Of a stretch of 64,000 bases of DNA, positions 33,065 through 63,999 are shown in pieces. Source of the DNA: a bacterium (lineage in GTDB: Bacteria; Electryoneota; Electryoneia; Electryoneales; Electryoneaceae); the NCBI GenBank assembly GCA_963669175.1, contig OY769902.1:4704001-4768000 (forward strand), given 5' to 3'. Position 1 is the first letter of the stretch. Every line of letters begins with the position of its first letter. Below the pieces are notes generated by a model. It did no database searches and was not told the DNA's origin. It saw only the letters and a program-made list of their open reading frames with translations. Made by a program: the position numbers and the translations under genes.

Positions 33065-36000
33065 CTACTTGATGAAATGAACTTTACGCAGATCCTGATG
33101 ACCATGTCCATCTTCAATCCGCAGAAAATACATTCCCGATGGCCCCCTGGCTTCCCAGTTCAGGCGATGAAAACCAGCAGCCAGAGAACCAGGACGCAAA
33201 ACATCCACCCTTCGACCAAGAGCGTCAAAGATTGTCACGGTTACATTGCTGGTTTCAGGCAAACCAACCACGACAGACAGTACAGGGTTGAATGGATTGG
33301 GATAGACTGCCGCAATCTCAAACTTTTCCGGCACACCGGAGAAGGGTTTGTCTTCCACATCCAGGGGCGGGATCAGGGTGAACTCAAAAGGAGACACACA
33401 TTGTACAAAATGCTGCTCTGAAACTGCACCCACCCACCACATGACATCAAGATCGTAAACCCAATCAGGCAGGTAATTCAATGAATCAGGCAGGTTTACG
33501 ACAATAGAAGTATCTTCAAGTCCTGCATAAGTAATCAGGGTATCCGCAGCGTCATCACGCGAGACAAGCAGGAACAGGTTGTAGGTAACCTCATCACCCG
33601 GATCAGGATCAACTGAACGCTGCCACACCAGGTTTATTTCCCAGGGATCTGTCAGATGAATAATTGAATTGGGCGCAGGTTGATAAAGGATAAACTCACC
33701 TGGCTCCTCTTCCATTGATGTAAAGAACGACCAACTTTGCGTGGAAAGCACTTCGTTACCAGTCTGATCTTCCGCAATCACGCGCCACCAGTACTGCATA
33801 TCGTCATCGAGATAATTGACAGAATAGAAGGGCTGGCTACCTGCTTCTTCTCGAACGGGGCTGGTAAACTCGCTGTCTTCCGCCAACTCAAGCGTGTATT
33901 CGACCACATCATCAGGATCAGGATCAATACTTGGCGCCCAGACAAACATCATATCCAGTGAACCTGACACCGCGCTGTCAGAGGGCGCTATCAGGTTGAA
34001 CGCAGCGGGCGGAGTACTATAAGACACTGCGAAGAACCATCCGGCTTCCGGTGTTGCCCACAAGCTTCCGGCCTGTTCAGAATAAGCTCGAACACGCCAG
34101 TAGACAACATCGCCACTTTCAAATCCTTCACCGGTGAATGTGTAGGACGTATCTGTCAAGCCGGCGACCGAATCAGGATCAGTAAAGGTTGGATCACCGA
34201 TGCCGTAGTATAAAACATACGAGACCGGATCATTCTGAAACGCGCTGGCAGTCTGGCCCCACACCAGCGTTGGCAGTGTATCGCCAGATGCGAGCCCGGA
34301 ATCAGGAGATAGCAATGCAAATGGGACCAGGCCATCTGTTACGGTCAGCAGGAAAGAAAGCGTGTCTGTTGCCATACGAATATTGTCATGGCTATCAATC
34401 GCCTCGACTGTCCAGAATAATGTCTCATCTTCCGCGCTGTCGTAGGTATATGTCGCTCCCGACAACCCTGTGGTCACAGGATCGCCAAGATCATCTGCCT
34501 GGTTCGACACAAAAACGCTGTACCAGATCTCATCCAGGGGATCAGGATCCACCGAAGCATCCCAGGTCAACACCACCTGTGTATCATGCTGAACAAGATG
34601 ACCGGATGGGGAGAGAAGAGTAAATTCCGCGGGAGTTGATATAATTTCCAGTGCGACTTCAGCCTCTTCGCCACTGCCGAATGTGCCGTCACCAGCAGAA
34701 TAGGTCGGATCGCCATAGGACAGGTAATTGCCTGACTGACGATACACCCGGTAAATGATGTTGTTACCTACAGTAAAACCGGGCCTTCCGACGTCGGGAT
34801 TATTCTGCCAGGCAGCCACACGTCTCGGCCAGTTTTGTTCCATGGGCGCGACAACAGCCCCAACACAGGTTCCACCATCGTATATCCCGATTTCATCGCC
34901 AGCCGAAAGGAATTCTCCGTCGATTCGTACAGAATCAATGGTGATTTCATAAGCGATTCCACTCGGGGCCAATGGCGTAAAATAGTTGGTTCCGGGGCTG
35001 CTCCAGTTTGCTGGCGCCGGGCCAAGGGCCGGAGATTCGCCTTCCGTATAATAAGCCGTCACTGTGTACGAGTTATTTCCGTAATCCAGGAGCTGGTCAT
35101 CATATGTCGTCTCGGTTGTACTCCCGATCAGGGTCAGATTACGATACACACGGTATTCTTCCAGCGTGCCGCTTTGCCCCGATACAGCAGTCCAGCCTAC
35201 AGTTACTGCGCCTGTGACATTGTCCATGAAACAACTGATGTTGGTCGGCGCTTCAAGGTCAGGCGCATCATCCGAAAGCCCGGTGATTACCAGGCTGAAA
35301 AATTGTGGGCCATCTGAAATTGCACCTTCATGATTTATCCGGACACGGTATTCACCAGCAACCGGGTTTTCTATGACAATCTTTTCCACATTGTCGATAT
35401 CGTTGTCACCCACAGTCGCTGCGTCTTCCGGATTTTCCGGATCCAGCACATAAGGCAGGAAGATAGAATCCGCCTCAATTCCCTCTATAGACAAGTCCAG
35501 ATCATTCACCAGGATAACATTGTCAGGATCAAGGCTTGGCGGGAAAGGCACCGAACCTTCGGGGTCGGTCCATACCAGGGTCACGGTAATCGGTTCGTTT
35601 CCCTGAGAATAGTATGTAAACTCTCCATCGCCACCATTGACAATGAAGGATTCCTGAATGGTGTAAGCTATTGTTTCATCCTGTGCAATCAGGTCGGCTG
35701 CCTTCTCCGTATTCATCAATCCCCAGCCGAACATATAGTCCGGTCCATCATCAGGACCGCATTCGTCAGCCGTATGAATCAGGATGGCTTTCATTGTCGA
35801 TGCCAGCGGTTCAGTATCGTTGTGCAGCTCCTCGTACATGCCAATCAGCAGGTTCACAGACCCGGACAGGTTCGGTGTGGACATGGAAGTACCGCTTTTG
35901 GCTACGTAGTCCGCATCACCACTGGATGAAGAGGAGGTGAGTTGAATGCCGTTAGCGCAGATATCCGGTTTGATACGTCCGTCATCTGTCGGTCCCCAGC

Positions 36001-37009
36001 CAGAGAAATCCGCCATTACGACTCCGTCAGCATTCTGATACCCATTCGTCAGGTCGCCAACAGCGCCTACGGTAATAATATTCTTCGCGTTCCCGGTCCA
36101 GCCGATGCAGTCATACCCATCATCACCGCCATCGGGATCACGTGTGGTTGTGCTCAATGTCCAGCCGCCGTTATCCCACACATAGTGTTCGCCACCATCT
36201 CCCGGGCCTGTATCGTTTCTGTCATTTCCCGCTGATTTACAGATTACGTAGTTCGGCGCTTCGCAGACGATCTGGTCATAAATCCGCGCCTCGCTGCCAT
36301 AATAACCGAAACCGTAGTCCTCCGTCTGGGAGACACTGGGATCACCATACCAGTACCAGTCGTCGCCATCGAAATACCAGCCGGTTACCAGGCCGTACGA
36401 GTGGTTTGAGACCTGCAATCCTGCTGCCGCGGCGTCGGCCATCTCATCAGCATCATTGTTCCATTCATAGCAGGACAATTCCGCCTCGTAGCTCCCCCCC
36501 TTCGCATCATTACTGATGCCTGCCGCGATCATGGTCCCCGCCACATGAGTGGAGTGATCTGAATAGGAACCGGGATTATCTATCTGGGTTGCACGATTTT
36601 CGAATTCCTGGTGCGTAGTGCGTACTCCGCCGCCATCCCACACCGCAAGCTCGGAGCTGCTGGTTCCATCGCCGGTGAGATCGTACCCTGCATCGCCTCC
36701 GGGCCAGACATTATCCGTACTGATAGTTCGTGCGGCATTCAGGTTGTGCGTATGGAAATAACGTGGCATGCCGGATTCATCCACATACATCAGTTCGATA
36801 TCTGGAAGCAGATTCAATCGACCCGCAGGCCCGGTTGAAAGCGCCTTCAACTGCTGGTATACAGGGCCACGCAACCCTTGCAATCTCAAGCGATATTCAT
36901 CACTTAGCCTGTGCAGACGCTGTTGCTGCTGAAGCGTTTGACCAAAACTTGCACTGGAGAGTAAAAACAGGAATACGACTGCGAGCGCCGAGCGAATGGG
37001 ATATTTCAT
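33065..37009 (-). CDS. Secreted S8 peptidase with FN3-like repeats and T9SS-type C-terminal domain
   Basis: WDGG / HSTHVAGT / SGTSMS triad; GPTDDGRIKPD; repeated W..S.DPDP.D modules; YPNPFN tail. Confidence 0.9.
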   Translation of the reverse strand: MKYPIRSALAVVFLFLLSSASFGQTLQQQQRLHRLSDEYRLRLQGLRGPVYQQLKALSTGPAGRLNLLPDIELMYVDESGMPRYFHTHNLNAARTISTDNVWPGGDAGYDLTGDGTSSSELAVWDGGGVRTTHQEFENRATQIDNPGSYSDHSTHVAGTMIAAGISNDAKGGSYEAELSCYEWNNDADEMADAAAAGLQVSNHSYGLVTGWYFDGDDWYWYGDPSVSQTEDYGFGYYGSEARIYDQIVCEAPNYVICKSAGNDRNDTGPGDGGEHYVWDNGGWTLSTTTRDPDGGDDGYDCIGWTGNAKNIITVGAVGDLTNGYQNADGVVMADFSGWGPTDDGRIKPDICANGIQLTSSSSSGDADYVAKSGTSMSTPNLSGSVNLLIGMYEELHNDTEPLASTMKAILIHTADECGPDDGPDYMFGWGLMNTEKAADLIAQDETIAYTIQESFIVNGGDGEFTYYSQGNEPITVTLVWTDPEGSVPFPPSLDPDNVILVNDLDLSIEGIEADSIFLPYVLDPENPEDAATVGDNDIDNVEKIVIENPVAGEYRVRINHEGAISDGPQFFSLVITGLSDDAPDLEAPTNISCFMDNVTGAVTVGWTAVSGQSGTLEEYRVYRNLTLIGSTTETTYDDQLLDYGNNSYTVTAYYTEGESPALGPAPANWSSPGTNYFTPLAPSGIAYEITIDSVRIDGEFLSAGDEIGIYDGGTCVGAVVAPMEQNWPRRVAAWQNNPDVGRPGFTVGNNIIYRVYRQSGNYLSYGDPTYSAGDGTFGSGEEAEVALEIISTPAEFTLLSPSGHLVQHDTQVVLTWDASVDPDPLDEIWYSVFVSNQADDLGDPVTTGLSGATYTYDSAEDETLFWTVEAIDSHDNIRMATDTLSFLLTVTDGLVPFALLSPDSGLASGDTLPTLVWGQTASAFQNDPVSYVLYYGIGDPTFTDPDSVAGLTDTSYTFTGEGFESGDVVYWRVRAYSEQAGSLWATPEAGWFFAVSYSTPPAAFNLIAPSDSAVSGSLDMMFVWAPSIDPDPDDVVEYTLELAEDSEFTSPVREEAGSQPFYSVNYLDDDMQYWWRVIAEDQTGNEVLSTQSWSFFTSMEEEPGEFILYQPAPNSIIHLTDPWEINLVWQRSVDPDPGDEVTYNLFLLVSRDDAADTLITYAGLEDTSIVVNLPDSLNYLPDWVYDLDVMWWVGAVSEQHFVQCVSPFEFTLIPPLDVEDKPFSGVPEKFEIAAVYPNPFNPVLSVVVGLPETSNVTVTIFDALGRRVDVLRPGSLAAGFHRLNWEARGPSGMYFLRIEDGHGHQDLRKVHFIK

Positions 37010-38433: not shown

Positions 38434-41400
38434 TTACTTGATCAGCAAGACTCGTGTAGTTCTGACTTCCTTTTCTGTTTCGAGTTGGATAAAATAGACA
38501 CCCGAGGCAAGCCCCGAGGCATTGTACGATTTCCGATGAATACCAGGTTGAAGTTGTGGCCAATCTATTGCGAACACGGGTTGTCCGAGGATGTTGAATA
38601 GCGTAAGCTGTACTCTGGCTTGATGCGGAAGGGCGAATACTACCGTCTGCGTCGAGTTGAAGGGATTCGGGTACACGCAATGTATCTCGAAAATGGATGG
38701 GATGACTGCCTCGTTCTCTCTAACAGTCAAAGGGTAGGTATAGGATAGCCCATACGGCCCGCCCCACAGGCCGATGTCGTTGCGAGTGCTGTCACAATCG
38801 AAATAGACGCTATCAGGGTGTCCGGCATTGATCAGCGGTGATTCATCAGTGAGGCGATAGTGAATAGTATCCTCAAGCAAAGGACTTATTGTGATGTTCA
38901 GGATATTCCAGGGGATATTGATGTTGTTCGTGTCATTTTCACAAAAACAATTGTATTGATACAAGATCGGTGTATCATCAACAGCTCTGTTGAAAATTGC
39001 GATTGAGTCATGCATGAATAGATTGCTAAAAAACTGCACACTGTTCTCGCCTTCGGATGATCCGAATATGTCCACTCCACATTCGAAACCTGTAAAGACA
39101 TTATTTGCAAAAAGAACTTCCAGGTCAGGGGTGATCCATACTCCATCTGCTTCTCCCCAGTCGTGATTTTCGAAAAGATTATTAGCTACATAGCCTGAAG
39201 AAGAGTTTGTAAAACACATACCAAGTGGAACATTGAAAAACCTGTTTCGAAAAACCTCTCCATGGCTTGACTCGTCAAATCGTATCCCCTCGCAATTAAA
39301 GAATTCGTTGCCTTGAATCAGCGCGGTAGAATTCAGGACACATCGGATGGCCGAAGGAGCGGGAGAACTTTCATATTGGTTCCAGAAAACGGAATTGGTG
39401 ATTTCAATATCTGATGCGTTCAGGAAAACATACATTATGAACTCAGGAACCTGCGAAACGAACAGGCAGGAGTCAATCTGGACTTGTGAAGAACTGAGCA
39501 GGTAAACGCTCATGTAATTGTCAAATAATCTTGTATACTTCAGGTTCAATATACTGGCTGAATCAAGTTCGACAGCTATTCCAGCTTTCTCGATGACTGA
39601 ATAACTTATTCTGCTCATCAATTGGCTATCAAGAAGAGCAATTCCCTTCCACAGGGAGTGGTTACTTTCTTCAAGCTCACTAGTGAAGCGAATCGAGTCC
39701 TCGACTGTCCCTTCGGCAATTAACTGTCCATACACATCAATTCCAATTTGGTATTCTTCATCTTCCACATACCTGAACTGCAATTCACATCCCGGTTCGA
39801 TGATCAGGCTGTCGCCTTCGGAGACAATGATATCCTCCACCACGTAGAACGGGCTGTCTTCTACATGAAGAATCCCGGTGATCTCACCGGACAGCAGGGT
39901 TCGCAGGTCGGTGTTGACAAATACTTCAGCCGTATCCGTCTGCCCCAGGCCGTCCTGCACAATCACCCTGAAGGTGAAGTCACGGGTGGAGTCCGGTACA
40001 GTCCCGGACACAATCGTCGTATCCCCCACCCAGTCCAGTTCGTCTTCTTCACTCAACCATTCGGGCAGGTCCGTGAAGCTGAAGGCAAGGGGACCGTTGT
40101 CATCCGTTGCGGTCACGATGATACTCACAGGCTGGCCGACCTGCGCCTGCACCTGGCTGGGCACAGTCACTACCGGGGGATTGTCCAGGGACTGGTCATA
40201 GTAGTAACACCCGATATCGGCAGGAGTGCCGTCGGGATCGTCAGGGCTGTCCGGATCACCGGCGTCGATGCACGGACTGTTGGCTTGCAACGTGTAGTCA
40301 AACGGTTCACCGCCGGCAAAAATAGGATTGGTCAGCAGGTTGGTGTCATCCAAGTCCAGACCATCCGCCACTTCCGATACGGCATAGATGCAATTGTAGC
40401 TGATCTCGAGGGGAACCGGGTTGGATATGAACACGATTCCGGTGCAGTTGACATCATCGCCAAGTAGAATATTCTCAACTATTTCACCCTCATTATCCGA
40501 CAGGTTCCGCAGCTCGAGTCCCGTATCACGGAAATAGACTGTATTGCCCTCAATCCGGCTGACCGGGGAAGTGTGTACCACGATCCCGGTTTGAAAGTTG
40601 ATGATCAGGTTGTCAATGACATCGACCGGGCCGCATTGGCTGATCTCAATGCCGACACGGTTCTGCCCGATGGCGCCGGTTTCGATGACATGGTTGTTCC
40701 GGATGGTTCCTGTAGCCATCCACATGTCGAGATAGAGAAACGTGCTGTTCTCGATCAGCATATCGGCCCAACCACTCACGGCGAAACAACCGCTTTCATT
40801 GTGATGCCAGTACATCTCACCTGCACTCAAATCAGCCCTGGCGAGATGATTGTATCTGATTTCAACAGCTTCGCCACCGTACCTGGCAAGGTCCACATAC
40901 AGGCTGAAGAACGAATTATTTTCAATGGAAGCGAGATTCTGCCCCGTATTCGGACATAGCCTCACCCAGACATCCGGACCGTCATTGTACCGGAGTACCC
41001 CGTTGTACAAGTGCAAATAAAGCAGTTGGCCCGGAATCAACGGAGCATGCTGGAAGATGTTGTATTCCACCGTATCCATTTGTACGCCAAAACTGGAAAA
41101 GATGACGGCGTTCAGCGCACGGATACGGCTCTGCCGGATCACATTCTCGCCACGGTCGGACTCGATGCCGTTCAGGACGGAATCCATGACACAATAGTTG
41201 AATGCGATACGTGAATCTTCGTATTCGAAGGGTGAGACAAATCCCCGGAAGGCAGCTCCCGCAGTGTGGAAGTATACCGAATCGCCTTCCTCCCCAGCCG
41301 CTTCCAGTGTGCCGAAGACGTACACCGGTGTACGTGTGGAGTCGGTCTGATCCTGAAAAATCACTTCTACTCCCGGTTCAATCAGGAGGGTTTCGCCTTC

Positions 41401-41676
41401 CGGGACGATCAGGGTGTCTGTGACGAGGTAAGGGGAGCCGTCCACATCCCACACGCCGGAGACTTCGCCGGAGACGAATGTTTCAGCGTGAATGGCTTGG
41501 GGAACTACAAGGGGTACAAAGGCCAGGGACAGGAGCAGCAGGAAGAAGCATAGAGCATCCACTTTGAACCATTGCGGGGAAAATGGCGTGTGGCGTTGGT
41601 AAACCGTGTGTCCAGCCTTACGCAACACGACTGCGGGGAGTGTGTCGCGCTGTAAAGGAAAGTTCATAAGTGTCAT
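38434..41676 (-). CDS. Secreted right-handed beta-helix repeat protein with Ig-like domain and T9SS-type C-terminal domain
   Basis: SGVW...SPY.V...L.IEPG motif twice, NN-rich helix repeats, SPCIDAGDP...DIG, YPNPFN tail; AAGGAG RBS. Confidence 0.85.
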   Translation of the reverse strand: MTLMNFPLQRDTLPAVVLRKAGHTVYQRHTPFSPQWFKVDALCFFLLLLSLAFVPLVVPQAIHAETFVSGEVSGVWDVDGSPYLVTDTLIVPEGETLLIEPGVEVIFQDQTDSTRTPVYVFGTLEAAGEEGDSVYFHTAGAAFRGFVSPFEYEDSRIAFNYCVMDSVLNGIESDRGENVIRQSRIRALNAVIFSSFGVQMDTVEYNIFQHAPLIPGQLLYLHLYNGVLRYNDGPDVWVRLCPNTGQNLASIENNSFFSLYVDLARYGGEAVEIRYNHLARADLSAGEMYWHHNESGCFAVSGWADMLIENSTFLYLDMWMATGTIRNNHVIETGAIGQNRVGIEISQCGPVDVIDNLIINFQTGIVVHTSPVSRIEGNTVYFRDTGLELRNLSDNEGEIVENILLGDDVNCTGIVFISNPVPLEISYNCIYAVSEVADGLDLDDTNLLTNPIFAGGEPFDYTLQANSPCIDAGDPDSPDDPDGTPADIGCYYYDQSLDNPPVVTVPSQVQAQVGQPVSIIVTATDDNGPLAFSFTDLPEWLSEEDELDWVGDTTIVSGTVPDSTRDFTFRVIVQDGLGQTDTAEVFVNTDLRTLLSGEITGILHVEDSPFYVVEDIIVSEGDSLIIEPGCELQFRYVEDEEYQIGIDVYGQLIAEGTVEDSIRFTSELEESNHSLWKGIALLDSQLMSRISYSVIEKAGIAVELDSASILNLKYTRLFDNYMSVYLLSSSQVQIDSCLFVSQVPEFIMYVFLNASDIEITNSVFWNQYESSPAPSAIRCVLNSTALIQGNEFFNCEGIRFDESSHGEVFRNRFFNVPLGMCFTNSSSGYVANNLFENHDWGEADGVWITPDLEVLFANNVFTGFECGVDIFGSSEGENSVQFFSNLFMHDSIAIFNRAVDDTPILYQYNCFCENDTNNINIPWNILNITISPLLEDTIHYRLTDESPLINAGHPDSVYFDCDSTRNDIGLWGGPYGLSYTYPLTVRENEAVIPSIFEIHCVYPNPFNSTQTVVFALPHQARVQLTLFNILGQPVFAIDWPQLQPGIHRKSYNASGLASGVYFIQLETEKEVRTTRVLLIK

Positions 41677-42434: not shown

Positions 42435-45400
42435 CTATTTCACCAGAACCATCTTCTTCATGGAGGTAAACGGTCCGGCTTCGATCCGGTAGAAGTACAC
42501 GCCGGAGGCCATCGCACGCGCATCAAAGCTCACGGTATGATAACCGGCTTCCATACGGTTGTTGACCAAATGCATGACTTCCTGACCCAGAACATTGTAC
42601 ACGGCCAGTTTCACATCCTGCGCTTCAACCAGGGCAAACCGAATATTTGTCGTCGGGTTGAAGGGGTTCGGGTAGTTCTGATGCAGCGCGTATTCGACTG
42701 GAAGCTGTTCAGTCTCTTCGATGCTGTTGTACAGTTCGACGTTGATATCGACTGACGGTGCATCATCCCAGTACGGACCGTGGAAGAAGGCATGGAAGAC
42801 GAATTCATCGCCGACTCCATAACCTTCACGTTCGTCTTCAGGGATAAAGAAGCTGACGCCAATGTTGACTTCTTCTTCCGGTTCAAGTACGCCTTCACTC
42901 GGGTCGAGGACCAGCCACGGAATCGGCTTGGCGTAACCTTCCCAGATATCAACCTGGGAGCCTTCTGCCGCGATCAGGACAGTAGTAATGTCCATGCTGC
43001 CGGAATCATAACCGTCAGAAATTGACATACCGCCGGCCTTGCCTTCTTCCGGATCGTACACCATGACCGGTTCCATATCGAAGATGTTGGTTTCAGGGTT
43101 GTAGCGATACATGTAACCACCCTGATTGTCTTCGTTACGGGACAGGGTCCAGATGTTATAGCCGGAATCATCCATCGACATGTAAGCCATACCAACGGCC
43201 TGACCGGTCTGCCACAGGCTGTCCGTGGTCAGGTCAAAGAGGCTGTCCGTAGTCAGGTCTACCATCACAAAGAAGGTATCCCAGTTACGGAAGAATATGT
43301 TGTCGTTGTCGTAGTCGTACGCTACAGCGGTCGGACGGAAGCCGATGTTCCCCATGTTCTCATACGAGCTGAAGTCGCAGGAGAAGACGAAGATTTCACC
43401 GTCGCCGTTACCGCCGAGGAACATGTTCGACGCCGGATCGTAGGTGATGTCGTAGAAACCACGACCGTCGCTGCCAACCATCTCTTCCGGATACGGATAG
43501 GCTTCTTCAAGGTTGCCATCGTGGTCAAACATGTACAGCATGTTGTCGCCACGGACCGGGTCAATGTAGGTAGCGTTGACAACCAGGCCGGCCTCTGTGA
43601 ATACGGCCGAGAAGATACCGTAGTTGTCGGTGGCTTCTGTTACAGAATAAGAATCCAGCCAATCCCACAGTTCATCCAGTTCGTTTCCGATGGCAATCGG
43701 ACCACGCGGGAACGGGTTGGAGATAGCGTCAACGTCGCCGTTGACCTTGCGCATCATGCGACCATTGCGGCGTGTCTGCGGTCCTGCCAGTACACCACGC
43801 TCGCCGAAGCTCCAGTCACGGCCCTTGCCGCTGTAGACCTGGCCTTCTTCATCCTGTGTTACGTAGCTGTCCCACTCAAGCGTACCGCCACCAACACTTT
43901 CAAGGGAGAATTCACCAGCGCCTTCCCAACCGGAATGCAGATCGACACGGATTTCAATCGCATCTTCGGAAACTGCCCCTTCCGGATCGTACATGATGGC
44001 GTCTACTGTGATGACGTCATCTTCTACCGGCTGGACATCTTCAACAGAAGTCGGCCAGAAGTTGTCATGTTCGTACCAGAGGGTGTAGGCGAAGTTGGCA
44101 TCGATGTCGCTGAAGGAATATTCACCTTCCGCGTTCGTGTAGGTAAAGGTCATCGGATCGTTTTCGAAGTAAACCATGACGCCCTGTACGGCTTCTTCGT
44201 TTACATCGGTCACGGTACCTTCGATATCACCGACAGCTTCAGGCGGAGTGCCGTAAAGCTCCAGGTCATCAATGGCAACGCCGAAGTATTCATGGGTGAC
44301 TTCATCAGCAGCATGCTGAATCCTGAATTGCAGGTAGGTCACTTCATCTTCGTTGTAGTAATCGCCGAGGAAGAAAATAACCTGTTCCCACGTTTCCGGT
44401 TCTTCCGAGAAGCCCGGCTTCTTGACATCAAAGGGTTCAACAAATGCTGTCAGTGAATGGAGACTGTCAACAGGATAACCGCCAATCGGCTCGATGATCT
44501 CCCAGGTTTCGCCAAAGTCCGGTGAAACCATGACGTTGTAGCCATCCCACGGATCACCTGCGGCTTCGTATTCAACCCAGTGGTAGTACGAGAGTGCTGC
44601 TGTCGGGGAAAAGATCGCAAAAGGATCTGTCACCATCGCGTCAGCATATGAATCGTACAGGTAGTCTGTTGCCAGACCAGTTGCGTAAACATTGTCGCCT
44701 GTATACGCGGCCAGCGGACCGGCAGTCGGCGCTCCGACTTCCCAGATGGTTGAATCCTGCCATGCAGGCATGTTGAACGGATCCAGGTCACCTTCTTCGA
44801 AGCTGGTGGCGAAGGACGGTGTGCCAAGCAGACCTGTTGACAGGGTTATCGCGACACCGGATTCAAGCGGAACTTCGTCAACCGCTGTTACCCAATAGAT
44901 CAGGATACCACTGACATCTTCGCCAAGTTCATCATTGTAGGTGACGACATCGGCGGCAACTTCATCGAGTACCACACCATTACGATAGACAACGTACCCT
45001 GCCAGGTCGGTAAGTTCCGAGCCATCCTCATTGGTGGTCGGCGCAGTCCAGTTCAGGGTGATTGTGTTACCATCAATCGAACCTTCCAGATCCGGGACCG
45101 GGGAAGGCGCAACGCCGAACATGGTTGTGTAGGTTTCGGAAGGATCGGATTCAACGCCATCATCACTGACTGAGGTGGCGTAATAATCAACATCCATACC
45201 TTCGAATTCGCTGCCTACGTCGATGAAGTTTACCCAGATCGTTGTGGGTTCTTCAAAAGCGGAGACGAATGTTTCGCCATCCGTCGAATAGTAAATGTTG
45301 AAGCCGTAGAACTCATCGAGTTCGTTTGCAATACCGGCATACGCAGTGCTGGTCAGATGCGGCTGCGTGTAGGCGCCATCAATAAACTCGCCAAGCTCGA

Positions 45401-48400
45401 AGGACGCACGGAGCTGGCCAGTCTGAACACCCATGCCATGAACCGGTTCTTCAACCTGGGATTCCGGCATACCGAGCGTAACCATCTCACCACCGCTGGT
45501 AACCATGGTCGCGCGAATCAGCGGGTCACCGCTGCTAGAGCCGGTCCAGGACTCACCACCATTGGTAGTATAGGCAAGCGCGTAGTAGTTGTTCACGCCA
45601 TCTACATACAGCGGTTCAAAGTATTCGCTGTCGTAGGTGTAGTACGCTACCCAGAAACCATCTGCCGGAACAGTGATCATCGGGTTCGCATGGTTCCAGG
45701 GATCGTCAGCCGAGTTGACTGTCGGATCGGATTCATACAGCAATGCGCCCGGAAGTCCGCCATCGTCCGCAAAGACACGAATCACGATATCCCAGTATTC
45801 ACCGGCCAGGTTTGGATAGTTCGGGTAATCCCAGGCCCAATCGCCTTCAGCGTTGTTACGAATATCGGCCTGGACCAGGACACCTTCACATTCCGGATAG
45901 AAGGGAACGGCAAACATCATGTCTTCACTGGGGGCGCCATTCAACCAGGTAATCGACCCCATGTTGACACCATCATCATACTGCATGGTGACCAGCTCAT
46001 CCATATAGATGCCAGGAGGAGTTGTAACAAGGTCAAAACCTGTATCATGAGCGTTGAAAGTGCTGCCAACATTCGGCGGTGTGCTGTCATCAATCATGCC
46101 AAGCACGACATCCGCCTGGACAACATACTGATCTTCAGCAAATGTGACACCATCATTGCTACCGGGCAGATAGCCGGTTGCCATCACATCCACATCGAAG
46201 GTTAGAGCACGGTCAAACATGTTGGTGAATTCGTAGTAGCCAACTTCGTTGGTCATGGTGGTGTATGATTCACCATCATCAACGCAAGTTACTACGACGA
46301 CAGCGCCACTTACGAACTGACCTGGAGCATAGGAAACAAGACCCCAGATTGTGCCGCCCGGCTCGAGCCCCATATCCTGTTCCATGATATACTGCTCTTC
46401 GCCGAAGTTCATGTTGTAGTGGTTGCCTTCGAGGTAACCGTCCGCCATGACAGCCATGGCGTAAGGACCGGCATCCCGACCGAACATGCGTTCGAACATG
46501 TAATACCCATCCTCATCGGTATAGGTCATCCATGTATCGTCGAGATCGTTGTTGCTGATCATCACAACAGCGTTGGCAATCGGGTCGCCGGAGTTCATGT
46601 CGGTAATGATACCGGTCATGGATCCAAGCGGCTCCATTTCGATATCGGTTACAGCTTCGAATTCCTCTTCATCCCAGGTAACGCTGTCGGCATAGGCTGT
46701 AAGGTAGCCTTCCGCATTAACGACCAGATCGTAGTCACCGAGATCAAAGTCGACCAGGATACGGTAGAAACCGTCCCCATTACTGGTTCCCATGAAGGAA
46801 TCATCCAGTTCCGGGGAAGATGCAACAACTTCAGCGTCGGCAACAGGCTCACCTGTGATCATGTCTGTCAGTGTACCCGTCAGGGCAGCCCACTGACCAA
46901 TCGGCGGCTGCTGGTAGAAGAGAAGCGACATCTCATTTACCAGATCGTTCATGTCAAAGATAAGCGCTTCGGTGCCATCCGTGTTCTCTATACCACCCAA
47001 CGCGTTTGCACGGAAGTAATAGATCCAGTCATCAGCAGCCTGGAAGTTGAACAAAATCGTGTTGTTTTCACAATCCAGTACGATTTCGTAGTCGAAACGG
47101 TAATCTGTGTTACCACCATAGGGACGGAGGCGATACTGGATGATGACTTGTTCGTTATCTTCATCAACATAGTACCAGATACCGCAGTCGTCACCGGCTA
47201 CACCGGCATGATAGTCACCGTTACACGGAACCAGCGTTGCATTCGGTTCGCTTGTGCTCGGTAATGTCACACCGATTGTATTGCTTGTGAAGTTGGTAAA
47301 ACTGAACCAACCATTACTGCAAGCGCCAAAGCTTGAATAAGTTACACCGTAGTATTCAAACTCGAGCGGTGAGAAGGAGACTTCACCCGAGTTTGAATCG
47401 TCGCCAGACTCAAGGGCAATCGAACCAAGTCCGTCATTGGCCGGATTAATTTCAATCCAGTCATATTCCGCTGCATCCATGACGTAACCTGATTCAGTTG
47501 AAGGCAACGGCCGGGTTGTGGCTTCTTCAGACCAGACATAAACACCGTAACCGTAGTCGGCAGCGACACGGAATGTACTTTCCTGTCCCCAAGCTAAACC
47601 GGAAACTGTGAATTCGTTGGTTCCCGCAGGAACGATTGTATTTGCCAGCATTCCGTTGACTTCAATCACTGTGCCCATGAAGTCATCAATTGAATCAAGT
47701 TCGTCACCAACCGCGAGACGACGTTCCAGGCGGGCGGCGTTACGAATCAGGATGTCCAGCGCTTCCTGTTCCTGAGCCAGCTTGGCAGGAGCCGTTGCCT
47801 CATTGCTGTTTTCCAGCATGGCAATATTGGCTCTGTGTTCTGCGATCTGGTCGTCAAGAATCTGGAGAAGTTCCGGAACCACGTGGTTTGCCGGATCAGT
47901 CCAATAAAGGGTGACATCCGGAGAATCTGTGGTCCAGTTGGTGGTCAAGTCCTGCGGCGCCATGATTTCTTCAAGTGTAAAGGTGAATTCATTGTCACCT
48001 TCCACAACACTTTCGTAGAAGTAATCATCGTGGAAAAGGACATCACCTTCAAAGACACCATCAACATGGAAGGTATACGGGCCAATACGGAAATCATCAT
48101 CTCCGATATCATCGCCGAAGAAGAATTCACCGTCTTCATCCGTAACCGCCGTCATGCCAGTCAACATCTCAGTAATGGTGACACCGGCAATAGCTCCACC
48201 ATCAACATCTTCCACGACACCGTAAACAGCGCCCCAGATGTTGATCAGGGTCAGGGTAACATCAACGGTTGTAACAACGCCAGATTCGACATCGACGTCT
48301 TCTACCGAATCATCGTTATATCCGTATGCAGGTTCAAAAACGACGTCATACATGCCTGGCTGTAACCCAGTAAAGGTGTAGTAACCGTCGTCACCAGTTA

Positions 48401-50207
48401 TGTAGGAAGCCAGGACGTCAACGCCATCAGCTTCATACAGGCTAACCTGGCAGTTGGTGTTGGTGCCGCCATCTTCTGCATATACAGTACCTTCGATTGT
48501 TCCCGGAGGAGGTGTACCGTAGATGCAGATATCATCAATCGCTGTGCCGAAATAGCTTGTAGCGTAAGATGAATAATAGTAGTCGTATATATGGCGGAAC
48601 TGGATGTAAATGTTCTGGCCATAGTATGCACTCAAATTGGCTACATATTCTGTCCAAGGGCCATTATTCGAAGCCCTGGTGTCTTCGTAGTTAGTATAGG
48701 AGTTGTTGTTGTTGTAGGGAGGATTGATCGGGACCATGGTCCAGTTTACGCCATCGGTAGAAGCACGAACCTGGAAACCACCATAGTACCTGTCGTAGTA
48801 GCTGTAGTAATAGTGGTCGTCCCATGCCCAGAAAGTCATCAGGGCGTTGGGGTCCGTGATCTCAAACGTCCGGGTGCTTGTCATCATGGTGAAGGAATCA
48901 TACCCGTAGGAGAATCCTGCATCCAGATCCGTTGCCCAGACATTATTGCCACTATGTGCTTCGGTTGGCCCCATGTATGATGTGGGAACGCCCCATTCCC
49001 AATCAAACATTGTGCCGTTCGGATCCAAAGTCCAATCGCCGGGGTCGGATTCGAAATCTTCCGAGTAGCCAAGCGGTGGCATGGCGTACAGGTCAAAGCT
49101 GGCATAGTTGTTACCAGCGGAAACAACGATACCATCTTCAGCGTAAGAAACGTAGTTTTCTGCCGAAACCGTTGCATTGTAAATGTTCGAATAGATGCCC
49201 ATCATGGCATAGGCGCCACCGTCACCGGTCACCGCAGTGAACCCGCCAAGTCGAACAACCGCCCCGGAAACCGGGTTGCCCGTTTCGGCATCCATCACAA
49301 AGCCGAAAACATTGGCGTCTGGTTGAGGCGCGACATACAGGACTGTGTATTCTTCACCGGTTACCGGCAAGTCGCCAGTGCCATTGTAGAACCACTGTGT
49401 ACCCATCGTTCCATCGGAATTCTCAATCCCAAGGGTCACAGAGGTGCTCATGGTGGTGCCGATATCCTGATACTGTACCACGATGTTGCCATTTTCCAGC
49501 AGGATAAGTTCGGCATCGACCGAACGTGCATCCGAACCGGATGATCCGTATTCGGAAATGTGCTGAACTTCCACAACAAGTGCAGACATTCCATCTATTT
49601 CAACGACATCATAGTAGGCCGCGCTGGCACGCGTACCACCAGTGTACCCCATGTGCATGTCACGCTGCCAGAAGGCGATATAATCGTCCGGGGACCCCGC
49701 AGAAGGGATGGCATAATGGCCAGTGCTTGTATACGGGGTGCTGAAATAAATCGAACCGTTCGAACCGAAGGAGAAGGAGGTCTTTCCTTCGCCATAGAAC
49801 GGGAAGCTGAAGTTATCGGGGAAATCGAACGGGCCCGCATAACCGTCATCCAGACTGGTATAACCATCGATCAATGTACCGCCATTATTCTCAAGATCGA
49901 TCCAGTTGAATGCCCAGCCTTCTTCCTCTTCCATGTTGTAGGCATAGTAACCGAAACCATCTGGACCCATATACTCGTCCAGTTCATCCGGCTGGTTACC
50001 AATGTGCAAAATGAACCCTGTATCATGCAGCAATTGCATCTCGTGCGGCATCAGTTCCTGACCTGCCTGATAACGCTGATACAGCTCTTCCGCATGAGCA
50101 TACATATGCTCTTTTGACATGTCGTCAAAGAGGGAAGTATCCGCAAAAGCGCCACCACACAAGACAAGAAGAAGCAACAGGGCAAACACCCATGAAACAT
50201 TCTTCAT
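42435..50207 (-). CDS. Giant acidic secreted multidomain protein (carboxypeptidase-regulatory-like, MAM/adhesin-like, FN3 modules, T9SS-type CTD)
   Basis: AAGGAG RBS, signal peptide, repeated G.V.D..TG.P...A.V units, two WE.G.PT..GP..A..G.NV.AT.L units, NYPNPFNPTT tail; no catalytic motif recognised. Confidence 0.88.
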   Translation of the reverse strand: MKNVSWVFALLLLLVLCGGAFADTSLFDDMSKEHMYAHAEELYQRYQAGQELMPHEMQLLHDTGFILHIGNQPDELDEYMGPDGFGYYAYNMEEEEGWAFNWIDLENNGGTLIDGYTSLDDGYAGPFDFPDNFSFPFYGEGKTSFSFGSNGSIYFSTPYTSTGHYAIPSAGSPDDYIAFWQRDMHMGYTGGTRASAAYYDVVEIDGMSALVVEVQHISEYGSSGSDARSVDAELILLENGNIVVQYQDIGTTMSTSVTLGIENSDGTMGTQWFYNGTGDLPVTGEEYTVLYVAPQPDANVFGFVMDAETGNPVSGAVVRLGGFTAVTGDGGAYAMMGIYSNIYNATVSAENYVSYAEDGIVVSAGNNYASFDLYAMPPLGYSEDFESDPGDWTLDPNGTMFDWEWGVPTSYMGPTEAHSGNNVWATDLDAGFSYGYDSFTMMTSTRTFEITDPNALMTFWAWDDHYYYSYYDRYYGGFQVRASTDGVNWTMVPINPPYNNNNSYTNYEDTRASNNGPWTEYVANLSAYYGQNIYIQFRHIYDYYYSSYATSYFGTAIDDICIYGTPPPGTIEGTVYAEDGGTNTNCQVSLYEADGVDVLASYITGDDGYYTFTGLQPGMYDVVFEPAYGYNDDSVEDVDVESGVVTTVDVTLTLINIWGAVYGVVEDVDGGAIAGVTITEMLTGMTAVTDEDGEFFFGDDIGDDDFRIGPYTFHVDGVFEGDVLFHDDYFYESVVEGDNEFTFTLEEIMAPQDLTTNWTTDSPDVTLYWTDPANHVVPELLQILDDQIAEHRANIAMLENSNEATAPAKLAQEQEALDILIRNAARLERRLAVGDELDSIDDFMGTVIEVNGMLANTIVPAGTNEFTVSGLAWGQESTFRVAADYGYGVYVWSEEATTRPLPSTESGYVMDAAEYDWIEINPANDGLGSIALESGDDSNSGEVSFSPLEFEYYGVTYSSFGACSNGWFSFTNFTSNTIGVTLPSTSEPNATLVPCNGDYHAGVAGDDCGIWYYVDEDNEQVIIQYRLRPYGGNTDYRFDYEIVLDCENNTILFNFQAADDWIYYFRANALGGIENTDGTEALIFDMNDLVNEMSLLFYQQPPIGQWAALTGTLTDMITGEPVADAEVVASSPELDDSFMGTSNGDGFYRILVDFDLGDYDLVVNAEGYLTAYADSVTWDEEEFEAVTDIEMEPLGSMTGIITDMNSGDPIANAVVMISNNDLDDTWMTYTDEDGYYMFERMFGRDAGPYAMAVMADGYLEGNHYNMNFGEEQYIMEQDMGLEPGGTIWGLVSYAPGQFVSGAVVVVTCVDDGESYTTMTNEVGYYEFTNMFDRALTFDVDVMATGYLPGSNDGVTFAEDQYVVQADVVLGMIDDSTPPNVGSTFNAHDTGFDLVTTPPGIYMDELVTMQYDDGVNMGSITWLNGAPSEDMMFAVPFYPECEGVLVQADIRNNAEGDWAWDYPNYPNLAGEYWDIVIRVFADDGGLPGALLYESDPTVNSADDPWNHANPMITVPADGFWVAYYTYDSEYFEPLYVDGVNNYYALAYTTNGGESWTGSSSGDPLIRATMVTSGGEMVTLGMPESQVEEPVHGMGVQTGQLRASFELGEFIDGAYTQPHLTSTAYAGIANELDEFYGFNIYYSTDGETFVSAFEEPTTIWVNFIDVGSEFEGMDVDYYATSVSDDGVESDPSETYTTMFGVAPSPVPDLEGSIDGNTITLNWTAPTTNEDGSELTDLAGYVVYRNGVVLDEVAADVVTYNDELGEDVSGILIYWVTAVDEVPLESGVAITLSTGLLGTPSFATSFEEGDLDPFNMPAWQDSTIWEVGAPTAGPLAAYTGDNVYATGLATDYLYDSYADAMVTDPFAIFSPTAALSYYHWVEYEAAGDPWDGYNVMVSPDFGETWEIIEPIGGYPVDSLHSLTAFVEPFDVKKPGFSEEPETWEQVIFFLGDYYNEDEVTYLQFRIQHAADEVTHEYFGVAIDDLELYGTPPEAVGDIEGTVTDVNEEAVQGVMVYFENDPMTFTYTNAEGEYSFSDIDANFAYTLWYEHDNFWPTSVEDVQPVEDDVITVDAIMYDPEGAVSEDAIEIRVDLHSGWEGAGEFSLESVGGGTLEWDSYVTQDEEGQVYSGKGRDWSFGERGVLAGPQTRRNGRMMRKVNGDVDAISNPFPRGPIAIGNELDELWDWLDSYSVTEATDNYGIFSAVFTEAGLVVNATYIDPVRGDNMLYMFDHDGNLEEAYPYPEEMVGSDGRGFYDITYDPASNMFLGGNGDGEIFVFSCDFSSYENMGNIGFRPTAVAYDYDNDNIFFRNWDTFFVMVDLTTDSLFDLTTDSLWQTGQAVGMAYMSMDDSGYNIWTLSRNEDNQGGYMYRYNPETNIFDMEPVMVYDPEEGKAGGMSISDGYDSGSMDITTVLIAAEGSQVDIWEGYAKPIPWLVLDPSEGVLEPEEEVNIGVSFFIPEDEREGYGVGDEFVFHAFFHGPYWDDAPSVDINVELYNSIEETEQLPVEYALHQNYPNPFNPTTNIRFALVEAQDVKLAVYNVLGQEVMHLVNNRMEAGYHTVSFDARAMASGVYFYRIEAGPFTSMKKMVLVK

Positions 50208-61200: not shown

Positions 61201-63999
61201 CTACTTGAGTAGTACTACGCGTTTACGTTCAACCTCCTTCCCCGCGCGGATTTCAAGGAAATACATACCAGAAGCGAGTTCGCTCGCTGTATACGTGATA
61301 TGATGATATCCGGCGGCCAGGATGGAGAAATCCCATATGAAAACTAGCTGACCGAGGATATTGTACAGCTTTAAGGTCAATTCGCTTTTCTCAGGTAGAG
61401 CTATGTGAATGTTTTGTGTGGAGTTGAACGGATTGGGATAAGGAGCATCTACCATGAACTTGTTTGGTAATCCAATGGGTCTCTCTCGAATCCAGAGAGG
61501 GTATTCATAGGACCTTCCATACGGTCCACCCCAGATACCGATATCATTGCGGGTGCTATCAACATCATATAATTCGATCGAAGGAGGACCTGCATCAATT
61601 AATGGTGAGGTGTTATAAAGGTAAAACAGGCTGTCTGCAAATTCGGGGGCAATCAGGAGATTGGTTTCATCAAGAACCAAGTCAGAATCAATGGAGTCAT
61701 TCTCAAAAAACACGTTGTATTGGATGGTAAGCAGGCCATCGTCCGGATCATCGAGTATAGATGATCCGCAGTTTATAAAAACGTTTCCTTCAATTCGGCT
61801 GGCACTTGGACCACCACTATAATTCTCTACGACATGTATAGCGTTGTTTAATCCATAGAAAACATTGTTACGTATAGTATCCGCTGGTGATCTTGTCCAG
61901 ATGCCTCCACCAGATAAACTGTCAGAACCAATAAACAAATTATTACAAATTTTAGCAGTAGCATTGTTGGCATCAGAAATGCTATAGTACCCGTAGGACC
62001 TGTTGAATATGTTGTTTCGAATTTGAACTGAACTTTCCAAGTCAGCACTAATCCATTTAGTATCTTCAAAAACACAATTCGTAATAATGGCTGTTGAACC
62101 AGCGATACGAATCGGTGACAATTCTGAGGGTGAACTTCTATCAATGAAACAACAGGAATCTATTTCAAGCTGCGATGACTGGCTTATACTAACCGCAGTA
62201 TAGCCTCTGACAGAATCGCTACTAAAAAATCTTGATGTACGAACCAAAATAGTGCTTCCATTCCAACCGACTATTCCAACTCCCAAATCAGATAGATTTG
62301 CATTGCTTATCACTACGAAGCTGGATGAGTCAGCATGAATTGCCCAGTCGGCAAAATGAATGTTAGTATATGAAAATCGTGTCGTGTCACTTGGTCCTAA
62401 TAGTTGAATTCCCTGCCACCCTTCAAATACAGCTTCTTCGTTTGCCATAGTAAAATTGATTGAATCCTGAACGGTTCCTTCTGCGATCACAGTACCATAG
62501 ATTGTAATACTACTTCGCTGTTCTTCGTCTTCCACATACCTGAACTGCAATTCGCACCCCGGTTCAATGATAAGGCTATCACCTTCGGGGACGATAATGT
62601 CTTCCACTACGTAGAACGGGCTGTCTTCCACATGCAGAATTCCGCTGATTTCACCCTGCAGGATTGTTCTAACGTCTACGGTTACCATGACAATTGACGA
62701 GTCCGTCTGTCCTTCACCATCCTCAACAACAACCGTGAAGCTGAAGTCCTCCGCATCTTCGGGGACAGTTCCCGATACGGCCGTCGTGTCGCTGACCCAG
62801 TCCAGCTCGTCTTCTTCACTGAGCCATTCAGGCAAGTCCGGGAAGGTGAAGTCAAACGGGCCGTTATCATCTGTCGCCGTGATCTCGATGCGGAGCGCAT
62901 GGCCTGTCCGCGCGAAAACATTTTCCGGGATGGTCTGGACAGGCGGATTGTCGATGGACTGGTCATAGTAGCGCCCCCCGATATCCGCTCGGGTCCCGTC
63001 CGGGTCATTCGGGCTGGCCGGATCACCGGCGTCAATGCACGGGCTGTTCGCCTGCAAGGTATAATCGAAGGGAACACCTGCTCCGAGGAAAGGATTGGTG
63101 ATCATGGACGTGCTGTCAAGTTCCACATTGTCCACTGCTTCAGAGAAGTTATACAGGCAGTTATAGGCTGCTTGAACAGACTGCGCTCCTACTGCGGCGT
63201 CAATACCGATACAATCAACTCCGTCACCCTGGAGCACATTATTCCGTATCGATACCTCTTCCGTATTGGCGATGTAAATGCCACGCGATTGCCCAAGCAG
63301 AGTATTGTTCCGGATGTCCACAGCTTCTGATACGGACATGCTGATCGCGGTCGCGGTAGAATCAATCACATTGTTGTAGATCTCAACACCCGCACACGTA
63401 TTCAGATGAATCGTGCCCATGAAGTAGTTTGCCGCATGCCCGAACAGCTCATTGTGACGAATCACACCACTGGACGCCATCATGTATATGGTCTTCAACA
63501 GACTGTTTTCGATGAGCAGGCTGGACTGATCAGCCGTGATATCGGTTTCATGGCTGACACAACCGCTTGCCAGATCATGAACGTGATAGTCACCGCTGTT
63601 CAGATAATAGATATCAACTGCGCAATCGTAAATCTCTGTGGTGCAATTCAGAAGACGCAACTGATAACCGGTCACACGATAAATGGAATCGATTTGGGGC
63701 GCTGAAAAACCGAGGGTAACATTGGGCGCATAGTTATCATGGAATTCATAAGGACCGCCATCAGACATGTGTGTACTGCTGGCGGTTGGCGTGCCGCCTT
63801 CATTCTTCAGCAGGGTGCAATGGGTGATTTCACCACTGTCAAAATCCATGCAAACCTGGTTTCGCAGGGCAACAATGCGACTATGCCGGACGATGGTTGT
63901 GCCGTTTTGCGATTCGATACCTATATAGGCTGAGTCGATGACAACATACTCGCAATGGATCAGGGTGCCTTCAGTCTCAGCAGTAGAAATGATCCGGTC
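61201..63999 (-). CDS. Paralog of the 38434-41676 beta-helix/CTD protein, 5' end outside the window
   Basis: Frame open to the window edge; shared core DYTLQANSPCIDAGDP...EEDELDW...CELQFRYVEDEE; PYPNPFNSTQ tail. Confidence 0.85.
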   Translation of the reverse strand, partial: DRIISTAETEGTLIHCEYVVIDSAYIGIESQNGTTIVRHSRIVALRNQVCMDFDSGEITHCTLLKNEGGTPTASSTHMSDGGPYEFHDNYAPNVTLGFSAPQIDSIYRVTGYQLRLLNCTTEIYDCAVDIYYLNSGDYHVHDLASGCVSHETDITADQSSLLIENSLLKTIYMMASSGVIRHNELFGHAANYFMGTIHLNTCAGVEIYNNVIDSTATAISMSVSEAVDIRNNTLLGQSRGIYIANTEEVSIRNNVLQGDGVDCIGIDAAVGAQSVQAAYNCLYNFSEAVDNVELDSTSMITNPFLGAGVPFDYTLQANSPCIDAGDPASPNDPDGTRADIGGRYYDQSIDNPPVQTIPENVFARTGHALRIEITATDDNGPFDFTFPDLPEWLSEEDELDWVSDTTAVSGTVPEDAEDFSFTVVVEDGEGQTDSSIVMVTVDVRTILQGEISGILHVEDSPFYVVEDIIVPEGDSLIIEPGCELQFRYVEDEEQRSSITIYGTVIAEGTVQDSINFTMANEEAVFEGWQGIQLLGPSDTTRFSYTNIHFADWAIHADSSSFVVISNANLSDLGVGIVGWNGSTILVRTSRFFSSDSVRGYTAVSISQSSQLEIDSCCFIDRSSPSELSPIRIAGSTAIITNCVFEDTKWISADLESSVQIRNNIFNRSYGYYSISDANNATAKICNNLFIGSDSLSGGGIWTRSPADTIRNNVFYGLNNAIHVVENYSGGPSASRIEGNVFINCGSSILDDPDDGLLTIQYNVFFENDSIDSDLVLDETNLLIAPEFADSLFYLYNTSPLIDAGPPSIELYDVDSTRNDIGIWGGPYGRSYEYPLWIRERPIGLPNKFMVDAPYPNPFNSTQNIHIALPEKSELTLKLYNILGQLVFIWDFSILAAGYHHITYTASELASGMYFLEIRAGKEVERKRVVLLK

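Follow-up and report, generated by a model that had tools for sequence, protein, structure and literature searches.

Proprotein convertases of the kexin/furin type use one motif for their own activation and for their substrates. Caspases (C14A) recognize an acidic tetrapeptide that includes Asp, DELD being what we take to be a caspase-3-type site. Here we describe a tetrapeptide, Glu-Leu-Asp-Glu (ELDE), that recurs in type IX secretion system (T9SS) cargo of an Electryoneaceae bacterium (GCA_963669175.1). The stretch analyzed, called the window below, comprises 64,000 nt of contig OY769902.1 (positions 4,704,001 to 4,768,000) and holds the gene for a 2590-aa secreted protein, P0001. An original prediction made from the window had proposed that a recurrent [D/N]ELD motif at the junctions of such proteins is read by a caspase-like, Asp-specific maturation protease. 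We tentatively read ELDE as a short linear signal for the proteolytic maturation of T9SS cargo in this lineage, a reading that has nearly as much chance of being right as of being wrong.

Three described systems are close enough for comparison. According to parts of PMC3378952, Plasmodium SUB1, an S8A subtilase of the secretory pathway that matures SERA and MSP proteins, has a self-cleavage motif at its propeptide that is also the motif of many of its substrates; recognition is mainly by P4-P1, and the motif predicts substrates. The arrangement predicted here is similar, but it is bacterial and T9SS-exported, with an acidic E-L-D-E and an Arg at the position of subtilisin Gly166. For the phytaspases, Asp-specific plant subtilases, sections of PMC6043521 describe an acidic residue at the autocatalytic prodomain junction as diagnostic of specificity and propose that a basic S1 residue (His331/Lys) binds the acidic residue. 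The enzymes considered here belong to another clade with another architecture, Glu is more likely than Asp to be the P1 residue, and the basic residue lies elsewhere in S1. The Porphyromonas gingivalis gingipains are likewise T9SS cargo with N-terminal prodomains and multi-module polyproteins, and ELDE stands at both autoprocessing places of RgpB, given in parts of PMC4357240 as Arg126 and Arg229, with Asp163 binding the P1 Arg. Unlike in gingipains, the element is a tetrapeptide and not a single basic residue, and most C25 proteins here lack the catalytic His. The likeness to caspases ends at P1', where Glu is constrained. Candidatus Electryoneota has been described as proteolytic with many secreted S8 enzymes (PMC9324843); the one Electryonea paper that we searched for T9SS or gingipains mentions neither, and we found no description of an ELDE maturation code in the literature.

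ELDE in the T9SS secretome

The genome (G000) is a single contig of 5.45 Mb with a completeness of 95.9%. Crude translation of the longest open reading frames (ORFs) gave 4010 proteins covering 88.5% of the DNA, and an iterated hidden Markov model (HMM) grown from the three T9SS tails of the window collected 337 tail-bearing proteins, which account for 334,913 of ~1.61 million residues (337 of ~4010 ORFs). The T9SS secretome of this genome is very large and includes proteins of 11,593 and 10,354 aa.

The enrichment of [DN]ELD that the original prediction implied is there: 115 copies were counted in tail-bearing proteins against 18.7 expected, and 67 in the remaining proteins against 49.7, while the control words DLED, [DN]LED, [DN]EID, [DN]EVD and [DN]DLD stayed at about 1-fold. 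The motif unit turned out differently. The residue before ELD is Asp or Asn in just 43% of sites, and the constrained core is E-L-D-E, the residue after Asp being as constrained as the others. ELDE was observed 158 times in the tail-bearing proteins, spread over 86 of them, against 8.1 expected (10.6 under a first-order Markov model), and 61 times against 36.4 expected in proteins without the tail. In an unbiased scan of all 4-mers it ranked 15th, after only tail-domain words and words found in at most 23 proteins. Its enrichment of 19.5-fold compares with 5.9 for ELDW, 3.4 for EEDE, 2.9 for ELDS, 2.5 for ELGE, 2.3 for ELDD, 1.2 for ELDQ and 1.0 for both EIDE and EVDE; every single-residue variant remains at or below 5.9-fold. 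ELDE is thus about 20 times commoner than chance in the T9SS secretome, a real and sharply defined motif under selection. Since the Glu after Asp is as constrained as the rest, a cut after Glu, with ELDE as P4-P1, fits better than a caspase-type cut between xELD and a small residue. Codons vary among the P0001 copies (CTG/CTT/CTC, GAT/GAC and GAA/GAG), which supports a signal at the protein level, as had been argued.

When sites sharing 8 (or 10) of 30 flanking residues were merged, 59 (or 86) clusters were left. The motif is present in 9 of 9 tail proteins above 2500 aa, 21 of 25 between 1500 and 2500 aa, 27 of 86 between 1000 and 1500 aa, 27 of 150 between 600 and 1000 aa, and 2 of 67 below 600 aa. 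At two loci (Table 1) a tandem, overlapping ELDELDELDE precedes a YWRV strand, which hints at a slippage-like expansion of the motif.

The sites mark the boundary between variable Gly/Pro-rich linkers and conserved folded modules. Their logo reads [D/N/G/S]-E-L-D-E-[L/F/Y], G/P/A-rich upstream and aromatic and strand-like downstream; upstream flanks have fewer hydrophobic residues and more G/P/S/N, and downstream flanks have more hydrophobic and aromatic residues. The downstream-minus-upstream hydrophobicity was 0.111 for ELDE and 0.014 for control acidic tetrapeptides (Mann-Whitney p = 5e-7, with sites that are non-independent). Information content was ~1.0-1.7 bits upstream versus 1.7-3.1 bits downstream, a comparison that is partly circular because the sites were gathered by pattern. 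The first ELDE of 36 of the 86 proteins falls within aa 26-100, past the signal peptide and a short variable segment. The motif opens NIDO-like (ELDE-xGGPD), MAM-like (ELDE-xxxEDFE) and propeller-like (ELDE-xWD, ELDE-FLGDT) domains, and it is also found in loops of FN3-like modules (ELDE-FxGYNVYR), in three peptidase families, and in a repeat of giant proteins (ELDE-LPDDxxxYWRV), as in the repeated domains of the 11,593- and 10,354-aa proteins.

P0001 consists of a signal peptide and NIDO-like, MAM-like, CarboxypepD_reg, FN3-like and beta-propeller modules, followed by a Por_Secre_tail. Its CarboxypepD_reg stretches (six Pfam matches) and the tail identify it as T9SS cargo; the T9SS type A C-terminal domain (PF18962) is shared with two beta-helix proteins of the window, P0002 and P0003. 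All four [D/N]ELD copies reported for P0001 are present at the reported coordinates, against 0.16 expected from composition, and at least four occurred in none of 5000 shuffles. The pattern ELDE-xGGPD at site 1 is common to 14 sequences, comprising G000 paralogues and relatives. Site 2 is a degenerate form with Ser in place of Glu, and paralogues have ELDE or ELDD there. An AlphaFold2 (AF2) model of aa 1560-2520, which covers sites 3 and 4 (13 homologues, mean predicted local distance difference test [pLDDT] score 73), contains two long stretches of pLDDT below 50, at model residues 1-72 and 561-619. The first corresponds to aa 1560-1631 and ends at Asp1631 of site 3, with a strand (74-82) beginning 2 residues later; the second ends at Asp2178 of site 4, with a strand (624-629) beginning 5 residues later. 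In both cases the predicted disordered linker thus ends at the Asp of the motif. E70, L71, D72 and E73 of site 3 and E617 and D619 of site 4 (model numbering) are invariant across the 13 homologues. Foldseek matched the model to FN3 and propeller proteins, with a beta-propeller after site 4; the ELDE-xWD start of this site recurs on C25 paralogues. In a same-genus orthologue (57% identity) the four sites read DDLDEM, GDELDAL, ADELDEF and GELDEM and the upstream linkers have diverged, and sites 2, 3 and 4 are kept in paralogues and in orthologues from five genera of the family. A C-terminal cassette of ELDE, a ~330-aa beta-propeller and the T9SS tail is common to the P0001 family and a C25 family of 1680-aa proteins.

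Table 1. Coordinates of features in the window (plain numbers, nt) and elsewhere in the genome (G000:C1)
Feature	Coordinates	Strand	Details
P0001 gene, 2590-aa T9SS cargo protein	42435..50207	-	ORF, translation, Pfam
P0001 T9SS C-terminal sorting domain	42447..42674	-	PF18962 (Por_Secre_tail), E 1.9e-10, aa 2512-2587
P0001 site 1, DELDE, aa 74-78	49974..49988	-	N-terminal pro-like segment, then first NIDO-like domain (xGPDGFGYY)
P0001 site 2, DELDS, aa 835-839	47691..47705	-	End of helical insert in FN3-like module, then DFxG(Y/T)
P0001 site 3, NELDE, aa 1628-1632	45312..45326	-	End of 72-residue low-confidence linker
P0001 site 4, NELDE, aa 2175-2179	43671..43685	-	End of 59-residue low-confidence basic/Gly-rich linker, then beta-propeller module
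Cassette (ELDE, propeller, tail)	42648-43683	-	In P0001; in C25 paralogues at aa ~1275-1690
P0002, beta-helix (NosD-like) T9SS cargo paralogue	38434..41676	-	EEDELDW at nt 40030-40044
P0003, beta-helix T9SS cargo paralogue	61201..63849	-	EEDELDW at nt 62797-62811
Window genes named with the large T9SS secretome	38434-41676, 42435-50207, 61201-63849, 33065-37009, 9593-11752
L012, S8 gene	G000:C1:2117820-2120939
C25 loci (22)	G000:C1		E.g. L011, L020, L023, L024; none in window
Tandem ELDELDELDE	G000:C1:1023382-1038915 and 5406689-5415358		Before YWRV strand
Glutaminyl cyclase homologue	G000:C1:1797269-1797967		PF05096, E 3e-91

The EEDELDW copies reported for both beta-helix paralogues are present, but they probably represent a paralogous Ig-domain loop and a signal different from ELDE. 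They lie at aa 545 of P0002 and aa 347 of P0003, inside a He_PIG Ig-like Pfam domain (aa 500-585 and aa 306-391, respectively), and the genome has ~20 near-identical paralogous copies; the 5.9-fold enrichment of ELDW corresponds to 18 sites in 18 proteins, which are He_PIG paralogues. The P0003 frame continues past the end of the window; it comprises 1162 aa in the genome, whereas counting from the first ATG inside the window gives 882 aa.

Named homologues bear the labels Candidatus Electryonea clarkiae and Calditrichota MAGs (metagenome-assembled genomes). We counted ELDE in tail-bearing proteins of other genomes in 400-kb samples, with families labeled f1 (that of G000), f2, f5 and f6. Two further f1 genomes had 3 copies versus 0.5 expected (G025) and 6 versus 0.7 (G051). 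No copy was seen in f2 (G007, 0.0 expected), f6 (G006, 0.1) or f5 (G005, 0.3), i.e., 0 versus 0.4 expected in the 69 tail proteins of the three outside families pooled; at the density of G000, ~25 would be expected in their 53,000 residues. The enrichment is confined to the taxonomic family of this genome. Placement at the linker/domain junctions of secreted proteins and lineage specificity, both part of the original prediction, are accordingly supported by the enrichment, the flanks, the AF2 model and these samples.

Activation junctions and a candidate subtilase

By sequence comparison, ELDE coincides with the predicted canonical activation sites of S8, C1 and C25 proteins. Among the 19 S8 genes of the genome, four have ELDE and one has ELDD a short way ahead of the catalytic domain. 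Both S8 genes inside the window are without such a junction motif, so the original statement on S8 enzymes lacking it is true of the window and fails for the genome. In L012, L013 and L014 (~1040 aa each; Peptidase_S8, E 2e-51 to 5e-46) the bond after Asp lies 20 aa ahead of the Pfam S8 start, and in L021 it lies 28 aa ahead; the S8 alignments show VIDxG, HGTH and GTSMA, the Asp, His and Ser motifs. HMMER places W172 of L012 at Tyr6 of subtilisin BPN' and its ELDE (aa 166-169) at BPN' -1 to 3, within 2-3 residues of the mature N-terminus. In the C1 protein L015, NELD occupies aa 51-54 and position 14 of the Peptidase_C1 profile falls at aa 63, which puts the motif ~4 residues from position 1. 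There are 23 C25 matches in the genome; ELD precedes the Pfam C25 start by 9-28 aa in 20 of them, in 17 cases as ELDE, and an alignment of 10 sequences with ~20% identity shows little or no variation at L, D and E of this junction. C25 profile alignments put the motif within ~3 residues of the Arg229-Tyr230 junction of RgpB, and the 1680-aa C25 paralogues have a second ELDE in a loop aligned with S-R126-A-E-N-P of RgpB (Arg126 being chain index 107 plus an offset of 19, as the 210-residue chain ends at residue 229). For C25 protein L020, an AF2 model of aa 1-620 (mean pLDDT 65, from 14 paralogues) shows coil at the first ELDE (residues 127-133, pLDDT below 50) and a short helix at the junction ELDE (223-228, pLDDT ~80), right before the first catalytic-domain strand. 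Foldseek confirmed the RgpB pro and mature folds.

A comparison of L012 with 120 database homologues suggests that this family consists of Glu-specific subtilases, which would cleave after Glu. The column of the last motif Glu holds Glu in 103 homologues and Asp in 8, and the next column holds I, L or V in 116. Ninety-two homologues have Arg at the position of BPN' Gly166, and 15 others have Arg at 156/157 together with Ser at 166; in all, Arg or Lys stands at BPN' 156, 157 or 166, as S1 positions judged by alignment, in 112 of 120. Gly166 forms the S1 floor of subtilisin, and positions 166 and 156 set the P1 preference (PMC3378952, in a passage citing Wells 1987). The prodomain junction of autoprocessing subtilases reflects their specificity, according to sections of PMC6043521. 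With cleavage after Glu, ELDE would fill P4-P1, the usual subtilase arrangement, and what is specific to the lineage would be E-L-D at P4-P2: the 25 homologues (of 120) that have ELDE itself at the junction all belong to the closest relatives. The L012 family is widespread in MAGs of the Fibrobacteres-Chlorobi-Bacteroidetes (FCB) group, and a conserved Glu-(Ile/Leu/Val)-x-Trp opens the mature domain. Covariation between S1 and junction in the S8 family was considered and rejected, as the Arg at Gly166 is family-wide and does not track ELD.

L012-type S8 proteins (E at most 1e-40) were found in 13 of 15 f1 and 8 of 9 f5 genomes and had no match in 36 genomes from six further families. Their junctions could be parsed by pattern at 17 of 28 loci; the 15 from f1 comprise 10 with ELDE, 2 with ELDS and 3 with neither, and the 2 from f5 have TDE or SDE. 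G005 itself gave partial matches only. Genus g3 of f1 (G009 and G054) has one C25 match per genome, no L012-type S8 and no C25 expansion. Considered as a natural negative control within the family, it was dropped because a 380-kb sample of G009 held just 1 tail-bearing protein; its T9SS secretome seems to be much reduced. Among other peptidase profiles, Trypsin_2 matched 2 proteins of ~420-450 aa in the genome, and Astacin gave 0 matches, as did the control for this profile.

The maturation reading would work as follows. ELDE, which stands where flexible pro-segments and linkers reach their C-terminal end, directly before folded modules, would be the recognition signal. The most likely enzymes would be T9SS-secreted subtilases of one S8 clade, namely, L012, L013, L014 and possibly a fourth with ELDD. 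After cleaving their own propeptide at ELDE, they would act in trans on this tetrapeptide, with P4-P1 filled by the motif and the last Glu in a basic S1 pocket. The original prediction is thereby supported in part: the positions do match known zymogen activation sites, while the constraint on Glu favors a cut after Glu.

Several points weigh against this. Cleavage itself, the bond concerned and the enzyme responsible we infer from position only, and the alignments with BPN' and RgpB could be off by 1-3 residues. The C25 junction motif lies in a conserved block of 25 residues and in the confidently modeled short helix, so that it looks structural as well. Arg at Gly166 is also found in homologues without a junction ELD (WOR-3 and Bacteroidales labels); being family-wide, it does not by itself tie the subtilase to ELDE. 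Family f5 has the S8 clade, yet its sample, G005, has no ELDE enrichment. Many sites are in loops inside FN3-like or repeat domains (ELDEFxGYNVYR, ELDELPDDxxxYWRV), where cutting would nick domains and not separate them, and one ELDE stands right behind a signal peptide (aa 26), where a cut would take away nothing of use. Finally, the ORF set and the tail HMM are crude, and the raw counts are inflated by paralogy.

Docking, cysteine peptidases and capping

The motif might be bound and not cut. His-less gingipain-fold domains or another receptor could bind exposed ELDE loops in a non-covalent surface network, in the manner of cohesin-dockerin or gingipain-adhesin pairs, a possibility we hold to be unlikely. 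It would account for the sites within domain loops, where cutting looks wasteful, and for the presence of ELDE in every tail protein above 2500 aa, and a fitting receptor would be at hand in a large, conserved C25 subfamily that lacks the His but keeps the Cys and the cleft, and shows ELDE at its own pseudo-substrate positions. However, pure docking offers no obvious reason why the motif should coincide with S8 and C1 activation junctions, and the AF2 model of P0001 places it at the boundary of disorder and order and not within long exposed loops.

Another candidate is a caspase- or gingipain-like, Asp-specific cysteine peptidase of clan CD that cuts after xELD, with the expanded C25 family activating itself and the secretome, much as gingipains do by cutting at Arg/Lys. 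The number of C25 matches and the 1680-aa paralogues, in which ELDE takes the place of both RgpB autoprocessing sites (Arg126 loop, Arg229 junction), speak for it, as does a sister family with Cloacimonadota labels, annotated as "gingipain R," whose junction reads N[FY]DDYR, with Arg where ELD stands here. In addition, the 1680-aa paralogues have Arg at the position of RgpB Thr209, and many have Lys beside that of Asp163. The catalytic residues tell otherwise. The His (RgpB His211) is kept in only 2 of 22 aligned C25 homologues, a PorU-like protein without ELDE and L022, while the Cys is kept in 20 of 22; the other 20 have R-G-[F/Y/W] instead of Thr-Gly-His at RgpB 209-211. The R-G-aromatic family had 160 matches at E at most 1e-10 in 5.8 billion proteins, with this form conserved throughout, and the sister family has the same R-G-aromatic. 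Conservation across both families indicates a conserved subfamily and not random decay. The junction ELD is present in 78 of 87 sequences of the C25 family (P0244-P0330), the exceptions being ELN (six times), EVD, SLD and ALD; the mid-prodomain ELDE is not conserved beyond the lineage of this genome. The Lys next to the Asp163 position was rejected as a specificity marker of the 1680-aa family, being present only in a subset of the ELD-junction sequences, and the Arg-junction sister family shares the same Thr. Some C25 homologues have a conserved THT[RK] loop near the S1 lid.

The only complete enzyme that is not PorU-like, L022, has relatives across many FCB-group phyla, and the His and Cys motifs are kept in all 120 listed members of its family. 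Its junction is ELDE in 11 of the 12 closest members and ELNE in 1, and ELDE was seen in none of the other 108 listed, which have [LVT]DE or Arg. The putative S1 stretch WGGDYKDE is conserved throughout, whatever the junction type, so that the homologue comparison gave no evidence of acidic specificity for this intact C25 protein or, more broadly, of an Asp-specific clan CD enzyme. Covariation of S1 and junction among the 120 homologues was rejected, the column associations being confounded by clade. The secreted caspase-like enzyme of the original prediction did not emerge from the other families either: C11 (PF03415) and C13 (PF01650) gave no match in a profile search of the 95.9%-complete genome, and the two C14 homologues (PF00656) both lack a T9SS tail. 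A strong constraint on the Glu after Asp would also be atypical of P1'. We regard a clan CD reader as improbable, and under the maturation reading a subtilase is somewhat more likely than a clan CD enzyme. The genome also encodes a glutaminyl cyclase homologue (Table 1); speculatively, it could cyclize an N-terminal Glu exposed by a cut after Asp.

Less probable still is a purely structural role, in which ELDE would be a metal-binding or structural N-cap, an acidic amphipathic turn before beta-rich modules, spread by domain shuffling and convergence without a dedicated reader. Consistent with this, L-x-E-L-D-E-[LFY] has a hydrophobic stripe with period 3, the C25 model shows the junction copy as a short helix with good confidence, a signal peptide is immediately followed by one copy, and modules such as ELDE plus propeller plus tail are common to unrelated proteins. 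Yet more than 10 unrelated folds follow ELDE (S8, C1, C25, NIDO-like, MAM-like, FN3-like, propellers and repeat domains), and all four residues are sharply constrained, with no Ile or Val for Leu and no Glu or Asn for Asp, which makes capping or Ca binding hard to invoke. In the P0001 model E-L-D belongs to the low-confidence linker, outside the fold, and homologous domains in other families of the phylum have no ELDE. An artefact of acidic composition and paralogy has next to no chance of being the explanation: paralogous copies make up many of the sites, and the tail-bearing set is acidic (D 8-9%, E 5-8%), but composition and Markov models predict 8-11 copies and not 158, scrambled words are at ~1x, and 59-86 flank clusters are left.

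A possible convertase code

The maturation reading can be taken further, to a "proprotein convertase" code used by a single bacterial family in an uncultured phylum of the FCB group. Subtilases specific for Glu, their S1 lined by Arg, would self-activate at ELDE and go on to mature or nick over 80 proteins of the T9SS cargo, including C1, C25 and S8 zymogens and giant adhesins, while the His-less, Cys-keeping gingipain-fold family would serve as a regulated substrate or as a receptor of the motif. In this full form we consider the proposal doubtful. If true, the convertase principle of one motif for self-activation and substrates would extend to bacterial type IX secretion, and ELDE would predict the mature boundaries of a fifth of the proteome by residues. 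It would also draw attention to acid-specific subtilases, a rare kind of enzyme with uses as a reagent, and a widespread His-less subfamily of the gingipain fold would be functionally linked to a defined peptide motif.

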